A stretch of DNA of 64,000 nucleotides. Origin: an uncultured Verrucomicrobiae bacterium. Its GTDB lineage: Bacteria > Verrucomicrobiota > Verrucomicrobiia > Chthoniobacterales > UBA10450. The stretch is taken from the NCBI GenBank assembly GCA_963756875.1, contig CAVWPA010000001.1, forward strand, positions 544,001 to 608,000, written 5' to 3'. Below are positions 123 to 27,992 of the stretch, in pieces. The stretch's first letter is position 1. Every line of letters begins with the position of its first letter. The position numbers were made by a program, and so were the translations under genes. The notes under the pieces were generated by a model. It was not told where the DNA came from. It saw only the letters and a program-made list of their open reading frames with translations, and searched no databases.

Positions 123-295
123 TCCGGGGAGCGCACGCGCCTCGCGTGCAAATGCCTGTCCGGCCCGGACTTTCGGCACCCTCGCCGAAACGCTCTGTGC
201 ATTATCAGCGAGAGAGATCCCAGACACTTTTAAAAGTTCGCGCCCCCGAAAGCGTTCGGGGTCGCTAGCACGCGAGGGCGCGTGCGCTCCCCGGA
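123..295. repeat. REP doublet (REPIN-like), family A
   Basis: Inverted ends TCCGGGGAGCGCACGCGCCTCGCGTGC ... GCACGCGAGGGCGCGTGCGCTCCCCGGA, with internal hairpins. Confidence 0.85.
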
Positions 296-1539: not shown

Positions 1540-1661
1540 TCCGGAGAGCGCACGCGCCTCGCGAGCTGGCGACGACGAGGCGTCGTCGCGATCTTAATGT
1601 CTCAAAGATTGTTTTGGCGAGGGCGCCAAAACGGGCACGCGAGGCGCGTGCGCTCCCCGGA
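1540..1661. repeat. REP doublet (REPIN-like), family A
   Basis: Same inverted ends as 123..295; abuts the tkt stop codon. Confidence 0.85.
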
Positions 1662-20262: not shown

Positions 20263-20416
20263 TTTGGGTAGCGCACGCGTCTCGCGTGCTGGCGAAGCCG
20301 TCTCGGGTTCGCGGACTTTTGTAGAGGTTCCCTTCCGGGGGTGCAGATGAATTTAAGGAAAAGTTCGTTGCGGCGGGACACCGCAACCGGCACGCGAGGC
20401 GCGTGCGCTCCCCAGA
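20263..20416. repeat. REP doublet (REPIN-like), family A
   Basis: GGTAGCGCACGCGTCTCGCGTGC ... GCACGCGAGGCGCGTGCGCTCCCCAGA; abuts the E2 stop codon. Confidence 0.85.
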
Positions 20417-21640
20417 TTAAAGCTTCTCCGGATCTTCGAGCAACTCGATAACGCGCTTGAGCAGGCGGCCGGCGCCCCCGCCGTCGAGGCTGCGATGATC
20501 AAAGCTCAACGTGATCTGGGCTTCCGTCTCGGGAACAAATTCGTTTTTCGCCTCATCCCACGAAGGAACTTTTTTGCCGACTCCAAGGCCGAGCAGCACT
20601 GTCTGGTCTGGCAGTGGAATTGGAGTGCCCCATTCAACCCCGAAGGTTCCGAAATTTGAAACCGCGGCGATGCCGCCGGCCTGCATGTCGGGCGAAATTC
20701 GCCGTTTGCGGGCGAGATCGACAAGTTCCTGGTATTTGCCGGTCAACTCGGCCAGCGAAGTTTTGTCCGCGTTGCGAATGATCGGCACCATGATGCCGTC
20801 TTCGGCTTCCACGGCGACACCGACGTCGATGGAACTTGATTGCACGACCCGGTTGCCAACCAATTTGGCCGCAGCGGCCGGATTCTCCGCCAGCGCCAGC
20901 GCGAGCGCGCGAACCGCATAAAGAGCGGGACCCGGTTTCGGATCGCGTTGCTTTCGATTCTCCAATACCGGATCTAGATTCACGGACGACCCGATTGTTG
21001 CCAGCGGGCGTGACCAGCTGCGCCGCATCGCGTCGGCAACGCCGGTACGAAGCGCGGAGGCTTCCTGCGCCGATTGGCTATCGACCTTTTGCAAAAAGTT
21101 CTCCAAATCTTTGATCGTCACCCGGTTGCCGGCTCCGGTTCCGGTGATCCCGGACAGATCTGCTTTCGTTAACTGCAATTCGGCCATGCGCGCGCGTACT
21201 CGCGGCGAAAGAAAACTGGCGCCTTTGAGCGTTGCCGGCACCGGTAAGCCCCCGGTTTCAACACCGTTGCCACCGCCCGCCGCCGCTTTTTTCTGACGCG
21301 CAGGCGCAACTTCCTGGTCGGCGCGTGCGGGAATTTCCTCGGCGACTTCGCCTTCCGGTTGAGCGGGGCTTTGCCTGGCGAATCTTCCGGCATCGGCTTC
21401 GCTCGCCTCGACGTAACCCAGGACTGCGCCGACCGGATATGTTTCTTTCACCTGCGCGACAATTTTATCGATCTTGCCTTTGCACGGCGTAGTCACACCC
21501 ATGACCGCCTTGTTTGTCTCCACCTCGATGATCTCCTGATCGGCCACGACATCGTCGCCGGGTTTCACCTTCACATCGACGATCGTCGCCTCGGCGATCG
21601 ATTCGCCCAACTGCGGCATAATGATTGGAACTTGGGCCAT
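20417..21640 (-). CDS. 2-oxoacid dehydrogenase E2 (dihydrolipoamide acyltransferase)
   Basis: Lipoyl domain MPQLGESI...ETNKA, E3-binding GTGAGNRVT, catalytic DHRSLDG. Confidence 0.92.
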   Translation of the reverse strand: MAQVPIIMPQLGESIAEATIVDVKVKPGDDVVADQEIIEVETNKAVMGVTTPCKGKIDKIVAQVKETYPVGAVLGYVEASEADAGRFARQSPAQPEGEVAEEIPARADQEVAPARQKKAAAGGGNGVETGGLPVPATLKGASFLSPRVRARMAELQLTKADLSGITGTGAGNRVTIKDLENFLQKVDSQSAQEASALRTGVADAMRRSWSRPLATIGSSVNLDPVLENRKQRDPKPGPALYAVRALALALAENPAAAAKLVGNRVVQSSSIDVGVAVEAEDGIMVPIIRNADKTSLAELTGKYQELVDLARKRRISPDMQAGGIAAVSNFGTFGVEWGTPIPLPDQTVLLGLGVGKKVPSWDEAKNEFVPETEAQITLSFDHRSLDGGGAGRLLKRVIELLEDPEKL

Positions 21641-24007: not shown

Positions 24008-27000
24008 TTATCGCGCGACGAGCGTAAAGTTACGCTGGGTAGCGGCTTCCTGGTGGCCGTTCCCGTTGGCGGGTTGCTGGGCGGCTGTTTCCGGTGCCGT
24101 CAATTTCATTCCGACCAGTTTGCTTACGCCGCGTTCTTCCATGGTGACACCATAAAGCACGCCCGCTTTGGCAATGGTGCGCTTGTTATGTGTGATGATG
24201 ACGAACTGGCTTTGGCCGATAAAGCGGTCGAGCACCTTGATAAAGCGATTGATGTTGCTCTCATCGAGCGGCGCATCCATTTCGTCGAGCACGCAAAACG
24301 GGCTCGGCCGCACCATGTAAATCGCGAAAAGAAGCGCAACGGCCGTCATGGCGCGCTCACCTCCACTGAGCAATGAAACACTTTGCAGTTGTTTGCCCGG
24401 CGGTTTCGCCGCGATCTCGATCCCGCAATTCAGCGGATCGCTTTCATCCATCAACGACAGGTCGGCACGTCCGCCGCCGAACAGCTCGGCAAACATTTCG
24501 CGAAAGTTCACTCGTACCTGCGCGAACGTGTCGGCGAATAGTTGTTTTGTTGTCGAGTTAATTTGCGAGATGACTTCGAGCAATTCGCGGCGCGAATTCG
24601 TCAGATCGTTGTTTTGGGTTTCAAGAAACTTGTAACGATCTTCCAGTTCATCGTACTCCTGAACGGCATCCAGGTTGACCGGGCCCATGTTGTCCAGCTG
24701 TCGCGTCAGATCGGCGATCAATTTTTGGAGATCCGCCTCGGCGAGATTGACTTCTGGGGAGCGCACGGGCCCTCGCGTGCCGAGTTTGGCGCCCTCGCCG
24801 AACTCCTGTGCGCGTGCACGATCTCGTGCATCATCTTCAAGTGCGGATTGGCCTTCCGGAGAGTTTTCGGCGGGGTCGCCGACAACAGCACGCGAGGCGC
24901 GTGCGCTCCCCAGATCACTCGTGTCCGCGCGTTTCCTTAATTGAACGCGCAGGGTTTTTTCGAATGCTCCCTGGTCCGGGTTGAACGCCCGCAGATCGGC
25001 GTGGTAACGCCGCTCCACGGTGTCGATCAGATTATCGATCTGCATTTGCATTTGTGATTCGCGGACCTGTGCGTGTCCACGACGTTCCTGCAATTCGCTG
25101 AGAGAATTGCGCAGCACGCGGACCTTCGTCTCGCGATCGGCGATGGCAGCAACCCGTCCCACTCGTTGCTCCGCGATTTTGGCAACGCTCTCCTCCCTTC
25201 GCTGGTGCTCGACGGTTTGATTCTCGATCGCGGCTTCGGAATCGCGCGATTCCTGCGCCTGACTCGCGAGTTTGCTCTCATACATCGAAATGTCGGCATG
25301 CCGCCCGGCGATCAGTTCGGCCAATTCCGTCTCGCGCTCGGCCATTGGCTGACGCCGCGCTTCCAAGTTTTCATGACGCTGCTTTTCCGTTGCAATTGCC
25401 AGTCGCAGCTCGTTGAGTTTTTCTGTCGTCCTGGCTTCATCCGCATTCGCTGATTTTTCTGCTGCGCCCGCGGCTGCCTGTTCGGTTTCCCGCGCAGCCA
25501 GTTGCGAGCGCGCCTCGTTCAGCTCTGCCTCCATCTCTGCAATGGACTCGTCGGCTGTGGCAATCTGCTGTTCGAGAGTAGCTCTTTCGGATTGCAGATT
25601 CTCGATTTTGCGCGCGAGATCGTCGCGTTCGCGTTCGCGCAACGAAATGTGCCCGCTCGCAGTTGAGTGCGAAAGGTGAGCGGCGTGATGGCGCTCCCGG
25701 GACTGATTCACCTTTTGCGACGCAGCCATCAATGCCGCTTTCGCTTCGTCGCGTTTTGTGGAAAGACCCTCCCGTTCCTGGATGAGTGAGGCTTCTTCCT
25801 TCTCCAGGTCCGCGATTTCCGCTTTTCGCTCCAGCAACGAATCCGATTTGATCGTGGTGCTTCCGCCAAAAACGATGCCTTCGGCAGAAACAAATTCGCC
25901 ATTTAGCGTCGCCGCGGCCAGTGTCGGGTCGTTTTTCTTGCACTCCAGCGCCTGCTCCAGCTTCGAAAAAATCACAACGTTGCCGAGCAACTGGCGGATG
26001 AGCGGTTCGAGTTGCCTCGGTGCCACCACCTTGTCTACCGCCCAGGCAATTGCTCCCTGGGGGAGCATCTTGCGCACGGATTGCGGGACGGCCCCGCCGA
26101 GCTGCGGGATGAGAAGCGCCGCCTTTCCGAGTTTTTTGCGTGTTACCCTGTGGATAATTTCTTCGGCGAGGTTCGCATCCCGCAAGATCACCGCATGCAA
26201 ACTGCGGCCTAGCGCGGCCTCGACGGCCGCGATGAATTTCGGATCAACATCAAGTTGTGACGCGAGCGGACCGGCAATGGCGGCACGAAACCGGTCGTCC
26301 ATCGCATTGAGGACTGCCTGGGAGCCTTCTGCCAATCCCCGCCCTTCCTGATTAAACTGGCGTAAGACTCCGAGACGCGACGTCTTTTCCGCCATTGAGC
26401 GCTCGAAATCTGCAAGGTTTTTCTCCGATTGCGCAAGCAGGTCCTGGTGATTATGCAGATTTTCTTCGGCTCGATGCGTCTCGGCGAGCAAATCGGCGAC
26501 TTGCTTTTCCTCGTTGCCGGCAGCGGCGAGCGCGGCCGCGATCTCCCCTGCTGTGTTCTGAAGTGCCTTTGTCGCTTCCCCGATTTCGGTCTCGAGTCTC
26601 TGAATTTGCGCGGCAGTGGCTTCGCTGCGGGCAACCATGCCCGACAATTCGTCCTCGAGAGCCGAGATCCGGCCCTGCGATTTAGTCAGCGCCATTTGCA
26701 GCTCTTGTGCTTCTGTCGCGAATTTCGCGCGTTGCGACCGGGCCCGTGACAACGCTTCGGTAAGCTTCGCGAGTTCGGCCGCTTGCTCCTGCAGAAGATG
26801 TTTGCTCTTTTCGAGCGACGCATCGGCCTCCCGCATTTGCGTGGCCTGCTCGTTCCGCTTGGCCTCCGCTGCGGAGATTTCGTTTCGAGCTCGCTCGATC
26901 AGCTCATTTAATTCCTGGGCGCGTTGCCGGTTAAATTCGATCCGGCTGCGATGCGTGGCGATTTCGCTCCGCAACTGCTGAACCTCTGCGCGCGCTTCCG

Positions 27001-27851
27001 CCACCTGTACGTCGATCTTATCCAGTGCAACTCGTTCTTCCCGGATCTCATTTTCGCCAGTGTCAATTTTATCCCGCGCCAGCTTTTTCCGAATTGCTGA
27101 ACTCCGCGATCTCCGTCCGTGAGGCGGAAAGGTCGCACTCCAGAGCGTCGAGTTGTTTGCGCGAATAATGCGTATCCAGAACGCGCAAATCCGCATGTAA
27201 TGCCTGGTAGCGCCGCGCTTTTCCGGCCTGGCGTTGCAGCGAACCAATTTGCCGTTTCACCTCCTTGATCACGTCGCCAATGCGCAAAAGATTGGCTTCG
27301 GTTGCCTCAAGTTTGCGCAGCGCTTCGCGTTTTTGCGTTTTGTACCTGGTGATTCCAGCAGCTTCTTCAAAAACCGCGCGCCGATCTTCCGGACGCGAGC
27401 TCAAGATCATGTCGATCTTTCCCTGCTCCATCATCGAGTAAGCGGACCGCGCGACTCCGGTATCGGCGAAAAGGCTCTGGATGTCGCGCAACCGGCATGC
27501 CGTATTGTTCAGCAGATATTCCGAATTGCCGTCGCGATAAATGCGGCGCGTCACCCGGACGTCGTGCCAATCGACGCCGAGCTCGGTGGCGCAATTTGTG
27601 AAAGTGAGAGAAACCTCGGCGAATCCAATCGGTTTGCGCGAATCGGTTCCGTTGAAAATAACGTCGGCCATTTCGCCGCCACGAAGCGACTTGGCAGATT
27701 GCTCGCCGAGCACCCAACGAATGGCGTCGAGGACATTGGACTTGCCGCAGCCATTCGGTCCAACAATGGCGGTGACGCCTTCGTGGAAGTTGAAGATCGT
27801 TTTATCGGCGAACGATTTGAAACCGAAGAGTTCGAGCGATTGAAGATGCAT
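24008..27851 (-). CDS. smc: chromosome segregation protein SMC, split by one extra base near 27084-27088
   Basis: Walker A GPNGCGKSN in the 5' ORF; hinge, LLSGGE and LDEMDAPLD in the 3' ORF; removing one A from GAAAAAG joins the frames. Confidence 0.93.
24753..24914. repeat. REP doublet family A inserted in frame in smc
   Basis: TCTGGGGAGCGCAC...GTGCGCTCCCCAGA, 162 bp (54 codons). Confidence 0.88.
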
Positions 27852-27992
27852 GGACAGGCCGCATTTCCGGCCTCGAAGGGTCAATATAATGAGTTAACCG
27901 GCGTTACAAGACCAAAATCACACAATTTGCGGGGGAGGGGGCGGGCTCCGACCGCTAGATACTGTGTTCGGCGGCCAAAACGACCAGTGAGC

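Follow-up and report, generated by a model that had tools for sequence, protein, structure and literature searches.

A palindromic REP doublet carried in frame by the smc gene of a Chthoniobacterales bacterium, in a loop that holds several cassette families among relatives

The 64,000-nucleotide stretch of DNA analyzed here (the window: positions 544,001 to 608,000 of contig CAVWPA010000001.1, from an uncultured soil bacterium of the order Chthoniobacterales, phylum Verrucomicrobiota) contains, within the gene encoding the core chromosome protein SMC, a palindromic element that occupies exactly 54 codons and leaves the surrounding reading frame open. The element is a REPIN, an inverted doublet of repetitive extragenic palindromic (REP) units, belonging to a REPIN-RAYT system, the latter term denoting the REP-associated tyrosine transposase thought to mobilize such doublets. 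It is absent from the corresponding site of the closest orthologs, and of 95 distinct orthologs 50 have a recognizable palindromic cassette in the loop where it lies, about six cassette families being represented. We conclude, with high confidence, that a REPIN, probably mobilized by its RAYT, has come to lie in a permissive loop of SMC and most likely persists there as a neutral or nearly neutral passenger. The principal features are the following.

24008..27247, minus strand: C-terminal open reading frame (ORF) of smc, 1079 codons, comprising coiled coil, hinge, joint and C-terminal head lobe
24753..24914, minus strand: REPIN in smc, 162 bp, in frame, encoding 54 residues
24753..24780, plus strand: REP arm, distal in the sense of the gene, with the TCTGGGGAGC tag and a small stem-loop; GGGCCC variant
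24888..24914, minus strand: REP arm, proximal in the sense of the gene, TCTGGGGAGCGCACGCGCCTCGCGTGC, read in the frame G-S-A-R-A-S-R-A

An earlier reading of the letters alone (the sequence-only reading) had described a REP doublet of this extent and content at this place, correctly as to coordinates and content; the label itself is apt, since two inverted, tagged stem-loops are present and two Y1/HUH transposase genes elsewhere in the genome have these ends on either side. The ends of the element form a 19-nt inverted repeat (95% complementary), besides which there is an inner 32-nt pair, and as RNA the inverted units are predicted to form one long hairpin (-101.4 kcal/mol, z = -7.5), as expected of a REPIN; none of 200 shuffled sequences folds as well. 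The stop-free translation, LGSARASRAVVGDP...GTRGPVRSPE, is a low-complexity peptide rich in Gly, Ala, Ser, Arg, Glu and Pro. Removal of the element in silico, either as 24753-24914 or as 24752-24913, two deletions that fit the empty site of orthologs equally well, leaves a frame of 1026 codons interrupted by the terminal stop only, with the junction that had been predicted. The open frame of the element is unremarkable in itself, because five of the six frames are open in this GC-rich sequence (the mean over the 56 pairs of the genome is 3.5 of six); what is informative is that the length comes to exactly 54 codons and that orthologs have an empty site. Nothing in the ORF indicates an intein or another self-removing insert, as Pfam returns only SMC_N and SMC_hinge and the 54 residues are of low complexity with predicted coil. 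At gathering thresholds, Rfam gave zero family matches across the whole window.

The element belongs to a large family. The terminal 19-mer occurs, with up to three mismatches, at seven sites in the window (123/277, 1540/1643, 20398 and 24753/24896), where 0.05 would be expected, and the three further copies that the sequence-only reading had placed in intergenic DNA do all lie between ORFs. They share about 30 conserved bases with the smc copy at each end, and their interiors are variable.

123..295, strand not assigned: intergenic REPIN of the same family, 173 bp
1540..1661, strand not assigned: intergenic REPIN of the same family, 122 bp, between convergent ORFs and abutting the stop at 1662
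20263..20416, strand not assigned: intergenic REPIN of the same family, 154 bp, one arm GTAG-tagged, abutting the stop of ORF 20417-21640

Two of these intergenic copies touch the stop codon of the neighboring gene without any spacer (1661/1662 and 20416/20417). A "TGA" found beside some copies was considered as an insertion motif and rejected, as it is really the stop codon of the neighboring gene.

In the source genome (G000; 2.69 Mb in three contigs, C1 to C3, with an estimated completeness of 87.6%), an nhmmer profile of the repeat end (E <= 0.01) identified 130 REP units, 112 of which form 56 inverted pairs, 54 of them measuring 101-226 bp and two 583 bp. The 14-mer core, with up to two mismatches, was observed 194 times versus 43 in a mononucleotide shuffle. 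Each unit is a short imperfect palindrome, with a 7-bp stem and a 3-nt loop (GCACGCG-CCT-CGCGTGC), standing behind a conserved 5' tetranucleotide tag; among 106 units this tag is GGAG 86 times and GTAG 18 times, and positions 2-13 of the unit are 95-100% conserved. The pairs are dispersed and mostly intergenic, 48 of the 56 lying outside verified read-through ORFs. Neither a target-site duplication nor a flanking consensus was apparent around the 56 pairs. Y1-type elements are not known to make a target duplication, and its absence here fits an element of that type. A miniature inverted-repeat element of a DDE insertion sequence was rejected, given that flanking direct repeats are missing and that the one coding partner to turn up is a Y1 transposase. 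The family is also widespread: a REP 22-mer (up to two mismatches) was present in 170 of 201 genomes, six of them unpublished, and in 34 of the 36 genera sampled from the taxonomic family, whereas the reversed control gave 0.

Both 583-bp pairs (C3:1631622-1632204 and C2:26117-26699) enclose a Y1_Tnp domain (PF01797), as befits a RAYT gene flanked by its own REPs. The first is free-standing, in an operon spacer, and has NF047646 (REP_Tyr_transpos) as its best NCBIfam match, covering positions 4-145 of 146 at 70 bits; the HUH (PDHVH) and Tyr (YICRN) motifs are present. The pattern of presence and absence at orthologous sites is indirect evidence that the RAYT may mobilize the REPINs. Four more Y1_Tnp matches, in frames of about 160-180 codons, were seen at C3:12137, C2:136900, C1:672335 and C3:1385666 (L033, L034, L037 and L038). 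They may represent other RAYT or IS200-like families, cognate to other REPs such as family B, a cassette family of the SMC loop of relatives (see below) that has 11 matches in G000.

When one genome per genus of the taxonomic family was compared, most SMC matches broke exactly at the insert. In a tree of 20 SMC tails from which the linker had been removed, G000 groups with G010, G011 and G017 (support 97/94). The linkers of G010 and G011 measure 22 and 18 residues, respectively, both are free of palindromes, and their flanks match those of the window after removal of 162 bases. The alignment of orthologs that the sequence-only reading had proposed for finding an empty site thus located one in the closest orthologs. 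A homologous segment free of the palindrome, the contrary outcome named in the same reading, was not encountered among the orthologs, which either lack the segment or carry palindromes of their own.

As that reading also had it, the insert stands just ahead of the conserved GPVN motif, at a distance of about 20 residues, on the C-terminal strand of the coiled coil. Across 99 orthologs the linker at this place varies from 15 to 72 residues. AlphaFold2, applied to a 400-residue SMC tail with 41 orthologs, predicts the following arrangement, in which the insert is residues 100-153.

SMC tail residues 2-69: helix
SMC tail residues 80-97: helix
SMC tail residues 98-157: coil, with predicted local distance difference test (pLDDT) values of 37-47 over residues 101-150 as ten-residue means
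SMC tail residues 158-174: helix
SMC tail residues 180-244: helix, starting at the GPVN motif

The insert peptide is therefore probably disordered, and solved Smc head chains align from just past it onward. The proposal that a mobile repeat has entered a tolerant loop is supported by the empty site in G010 and G011, by the variable length of the linker and by this low-confidence coil. A screen of peptide insertions in Bacillus subtilis Smc was reportedly made by Burmann et al. in 2017. As described by Diebold-Durand et al. in 2017 (available text of PMC5526789), the Smc joint consists of three helix-loop repeats on the C-terminal strand, and an insertion screen cited there found that the Smc arms accept peptides nowhere but close to the hinge and in certain stretches of the joint. 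The loop holding our insert appears to be part of this joint, a placement made by the fragment model and sequence position rather than by superposition. The likeness to the B. subtilis joint, on what those passages give, lies in a head-proximal break of the coiled coil composed of short helices and loops, partly tolerant of insertion, with the same helix-loop pattern predicted here; the inserts of that screen, in contrast, were short and engineered.

Three comparisons identify the host gene as smc. Taken by itself, the C-terminal ORF reaches 571.4 bits with TIGR02168 (bacterial SMC; cut-off 567.35), Pfam assigns SMC_N and SMC_hinge to it, and head chains of B. subtilis Smc match it at E = 6e-66. 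An SMC tail query finds a single match in G000. The assembly, as given, splits the gene into two frames.

27069..27884, minus strand: N-terminal ORF of smc, 271 codons, with the Walker A head lobe (Pfam SMC_N), overlapping the C-terminal ORF in another frame
27084..27088, minus strand: A5 run with a one-base shift of the smc frame, across which the ortholog is colinear

The split is probably a sequencing or assembly error of the homopolymer type, a view made likelier because a uvrA-like gene of G000 (C3, near 700928) shows a second one-base frameshift at an A-run. Such long-read homopolymer errors would probably also lower the completeness estimate given above. Two DNA runs of one soil study match the sequence among public sequencing runs, each with a 0.09 share of words; no RNA run did so among the public runs listed. 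A 151-nt contig from one of these soil data sets (run X1) corresponds to 24706-24856 with 0 differences and spans the 24752/24753 junction, while most other pieces mapped from soil reads are other REP copies with loose ends.

The smc insert acquires a broader meaning from the orthologs of related genomes. Linkers could be extracted from 99 of 100 SMC loci (L101 offered no anchor), of which 95 are distinct, and cassettes were assigned to families A to F by peptide and DNA motifs. Three of the SMC rows come from unpublished genomes (L010 of G014, L014 of G007 and L016 of G002), and none of these is of family A. The families are distributed among the orthologs as follows.

Family A (that of the window): 7 orthologs, 5 with intact hairpins (z <= -5.1) and 2 degenerate
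Family B: 17 orthologs
Family C: 14 orthologs
Family D: 5 orthologs
Family E: 6 orthologs
Family F: 1 ortholog

Families E and F have GTAG tags. Loci with families B to F in the SMC loop are among L003, L007, L011, L013 and L047-L116. In other species, family A occurs in SMC with an intact hairpin at L002 (G004), L044, L045 and L058 (z <= -5.1) and in degenerate form at L055 and L078, the latter suggesting that the hairpin is not maintained over the long term. Multi-copy status was checked for families A, B and C, and all three are multi-copy; family B has 119 matches in G016 and 73 in G017, and 25 of 101 genomes contain family C, the highest number being 40 copies. On a quick tree built without the linker, family A requires 7 changes, at least 5 of them forced by well-supported branches, and the six families together require 20.

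Near-identical alleles differ in their cassettes: L045 (A) and L095 (none), L054 (B) and L056 (D), and L068 (E) and L092 (C), pairs within which branch lengths are 0.003-0.04. Their DNA is about 98-100% identical away from the linker, falls to about 80% in the 40-60 bases beside it, and then recovers. Divergence raised only beside the linker points to exchange of short patches by recombination, in which case true insertion events would be fewer than the changes that the tree requires. In its interior, the G000 copy shows 0.51-0.56 identity to the other SMC-borne family-A copies and a median of 0.56 (maximum 0.64) to the 53 other REPINs of its own genome; interior similarity thus gave no signal of orthology among the SMC-borne family-A copies. 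The occupation of one SMC loop by about six cassette families, with near-identical alleles differing in cassette, is new here.

SMC is one of several hosts. A search of the source genome for in-frame copies, as the sequence-only reading had suggested, located 8 of the 56 pairs within genes that Pfam verified, in frames that read through the element, 7 of the 8 using the reading frame G-S-A-R..., with this distribution.

smc: 1 in-frame pair
uvrA-like double-module gene: 3 in-frame pairs
dnaE-like polymerase: 1 in-frame pair
alaS: 1 in-frame pair
metH: 2 in-frame pairs

One of the three REPINs of the uvrA-like gene (C3:700928-705391, L021) lies in the linker between the UvrA modules; a 1995-residue UvrA of Opitutus terrae is listed with REP inserts in the available text of PMC3733652. 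In alaS, a REPIN occupies a shared upstream site (after STLPDS) in both G000 (C3:1231345-1231445) and G007. The metH gene of G000 (C2:23186-27811, L024) includes, besides a REPIN at C2:24118-24272, an entire REP-RAYT-REP cassette of about 195 residues, in frame between the S-methyl_trans (homocysteine) and Pterin_bind domains. The same arrangement is found in metH of G017 (L122; 77% identity over a 351-residue query), and the HUH and Tyr motifs are intact in both nested cassettes; metH of G004 (L123), on the other hand, is split into three ORFs by the cassette.

Most of the strong RAYT homologs examined are nested in host genes. In 31 genomes, 15 matches covered the RAYT part at E <= 1e-50, and 12 of these lie inside host genes, 11 in frame and one splitting metH.

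RAYT in metH: 3 (G000, G017 and, in three ORFs, G004)
RAYT in alaS, in frame, in two genera: 2 (G004, L127, and the unpublished genome G007, L124)
RAYT in recG, at the same site: 7 (G003, G004, G015, G016, G017, G022 and G025, from three families of the order)
Free-standing RAYT frames of at most 274 codons: 3

The recG site lies between the DEAD and Helicase_C domains, in frame (L125, L126 and L128-L132), and the RecG-RAYT chimera looks old and conserved, judging by this distribution. RecG was not found in G000, a genome 87.6% complete, with the G017 RecG as query; the only helicase-like match was a 1115-codon frame of 38-39% identity. RAYT genes in frame inside metH, recG and alaS in Chthoniobacterales are new here. 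We found no description of RAYT genes nested in host genes in the literature searched, including PMC5581495 and PMC6006769, which is not proof of absence; as the available text of PMC6006769 has it, that survey of RAYT families dropped unexpectedly long proteins as fusions or annotation errors.

Short in-frame repeats have precedents, the closest of which, on the available text, is the 2013 report of GTAG and CGTC REPs and their dimers within ORFs (Di Nocera, De Gregorio and Rocco, PMC3733652). There, intragenic REPs are described as most numerous in the verrucomicrobium O. terrae and in Rickettsia conorii, uvrA, dnaE2 and tRNA synthetases being overrepresented among their hosts, and are taken to lie in flexible linkers. 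The GTAG-type REPs of that account resemble ours in being tagged small stem-loops, mostly in inverted dimers 20-100 bp apart, associated with RAYT, a minority of which lie wholly and in frame within ORFs of known proteins. They differ, as far as the same text goes, in their inserts of mostly 20-30 residues, as against 54 in smc, and in their GTAG type, as against the mostly GGAG tags of the smc family; nor did we find in it a single loop reoccupied by several families or RAYTs within host genes. The terms "SMC" and "chromosome segregation" have 0 occurrences in its main text and four supplementary files. The smc insert hence adds SMC as a host to the already known phenomenon of in-frame REPs. 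The sequence-only reading had cited instead the Rickettsia palindromic elements (RPEs), a valid analogy, although the intragenic GTAG-type REP dimers of O. terrae provide a closer one. In the summary given by PMC3733652, these are palindromes of about 100-150 bp lying in frame in probably functional genes; they belong to a different phylum and sequence family, their likeness to the smc insert is functional only, and passages of the same report equate RPE-4 and RPE-6 with transposase-free CGTC-type REPs. With REPIN-RAYT systems as described by Bertels and Rainey in 2011 (PMC3116915) and in the available portions of later preprints, our system shares the inverted doublet hairpin, tens to hundreds of copies per genome, a RAYT flanked by the same REPs, and persistence of the family across related lineages. 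The systems portrayed in those sources are extragenic, with a single-copy, free-standing RAYT; here, in contrast, 8 of 56 pairs are intragenic, one of the two RAYTs lies in metH, and interiors are far more variable than ends.

The events giving rise to the smc insert can be envisaged as follows. A REPIN consists of two inverted REP stem-loops and a variable, self-pairing spacer; it is non-autonomous and thought to be moved as a single-stranded hairpin by the HUH/Y1 transposase, and the RAYT serving here would be that encoded in the same genome between the same REPs. One copy would have come to rest before GPVN on the C-terminal strand of the coiled coil, where a variable loop joins two short helices; it would have got there through direct insertion or through recombination that brought in the allele of a relative. 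Most likely the insert makes a surface loop longer as a neutral or almost neutral passenger, and it would leave SMC function unharmed; the copy would survive because it comprises 54 stop-free codons and adds a probably disordered peptide at a site tolerant of extra residues. Passive survival of a RAYT-mobilized REPIN in a permissive loop is the most likely mechanism.

Several observations weigh against this account. The RAYT, at 70 bits, falls under the NCBIfam equivalog cut-off of 80, and the prevailing tag is GGAG rather than the canonical GTAG, degenerate tags being known in O. terrae REP families according to the available text of PMC3733652. The assembly as given interrupts smc upstream, at 27084-27088, so that, read literally, the insert-bearing ORF is not part of a full-length SMC. 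The available read contigs reach neither this A-run nor the 24914/24915 junction; the expectation that reads would carry the insert is thus upheld at one of its two junctions, by a single outside contig, and not at the other, and run X1 may be the source sample itself. The structural model is of a fragment lacking the N-terminal partner helix, with a predicted template modeling score (pTM) of 0.30, and we drew on nothing beyond its secondary structure and confidence profile. The sequence-only reading spoke of an element "translated in frame"; the frame is indeed intact, but it is from this frame that we infer translation. Finally, a palindrome in this loop in half of the orthologs exceeds what a passive tolerant site obviously predicts, and so high an occupancy could also reflect some function or a bias in targeting.

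The alternatives differ in how they accommodate these facts. Homologous recombination could have brought the insert in with a small stretch of smc from a relative's allele, the linker behaving as an exchangeable cassette. The three near-identical allele pairs with different linkers (L045/L095, L054/L056 and L068/L092) show just the divergence, confined to the 40-60 bases beside the linker, that imported patches would give. For G000 itself, however, the sample holds no close relative (branch length 0.23 to 0.27 in two trees), so that no patch boundary is visible, and the interior of its copy resembles other REPINs of the genome at least as closely as it does SMC-borne family-A copies, which fits a local origin at least as well; we regard an imported patch as rather unlikely. 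Preservation of the palindrome for a function seems to us improbable, whether the function is that of an mRNA hairpin (in pausing, processing or stability within a 4-kb message), of some DNA structure, or of a protein loop modulating the joint, for example its contact with ParB. The docking of ParB on the Smc joint, described in the available text of PMC9449133, cassettes at one site in 50 of 95 orthologs, their rapid turnover, and strong hairpins in many copies (z down to -7.9) speak for such a function. Yet the remaining 45 orthologs have no recognizable palindrome and some linkers number just 15 residues, the copies at L055 and L078 have degenerated, the cassette families are unrelated in sequence, and the same elements occur in such unrelated proteins as those encoded by uvrA, dnaE, alaS and metH.

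That the insert is an artefact, a repeat misplaced by the assembler, or that smc is a pseudogene accumulating insertions freely, we consider scarcely credible. The frameshifts in smc and the uvrA-like gene do betray imperfect base accuracy, and the genome is estimated as incomplete; both shifts, however, lie in homopolymers, the usual site of long-read error, and an insert of exactly 54 stop-free codons lies in a 1079-codon frame that scores above the SMC equivalog cut-off. Moreover, the outside contig crosses one junction without a difference, G000 has a single SMC tail match, and independent assemblies of other species show this element family at the corresponding site and in an identical frame. 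Passive settlement of a mobile REPIN remains our preferred account of the smc insert. We also entertain, tentatively and with less than even confidence, a more general proposition, according to which REP-RAYT-REP cassettes and REPINs of Chthoniobacterales exist as stop-free modules inside host proteins, with RAYT as an internal domain of RecG, MetH or AlaRS, and the RecG-RAYT chimera possibly acting at replication forks; permissive loops, the SMC joint foremost, would be landing pads whose cassettes recombination exchanges between lineages, and the smc insert would be one product.

From the perspective of protein evolution, these observations add SMC, a core chromosome-folding motor, to the proteins with repeat-encoded peptide segments, and they mark a loop that takes natural insertions, apparently in the Smc joint, a part that experiments in B. 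subtilis showed to be permissive. Of greater use than the single finding is the pattern as a whole: one loop, about six families, half of 95 orthologs and swaps between near-identical alleles provide a natural experiment on the ways in which mobile hairpins generate protein sequence and turn it over, on whether REPs target DNA contexts or merely survive at tolerant sites, and on the structural freedom of the SMC joint. Surveys that set aside over-long RAYT proteins, as the available text of PMC6006769 describes, would miss nested copies, and the nested RAYTs of recG, metH and alaS, if expressed, would alter the view of how "domesticated" transposases are expressed. If the proposed life of these elements inside host genes is true, it would represent a so far undescribed mode of the REPIN-RAYT system.

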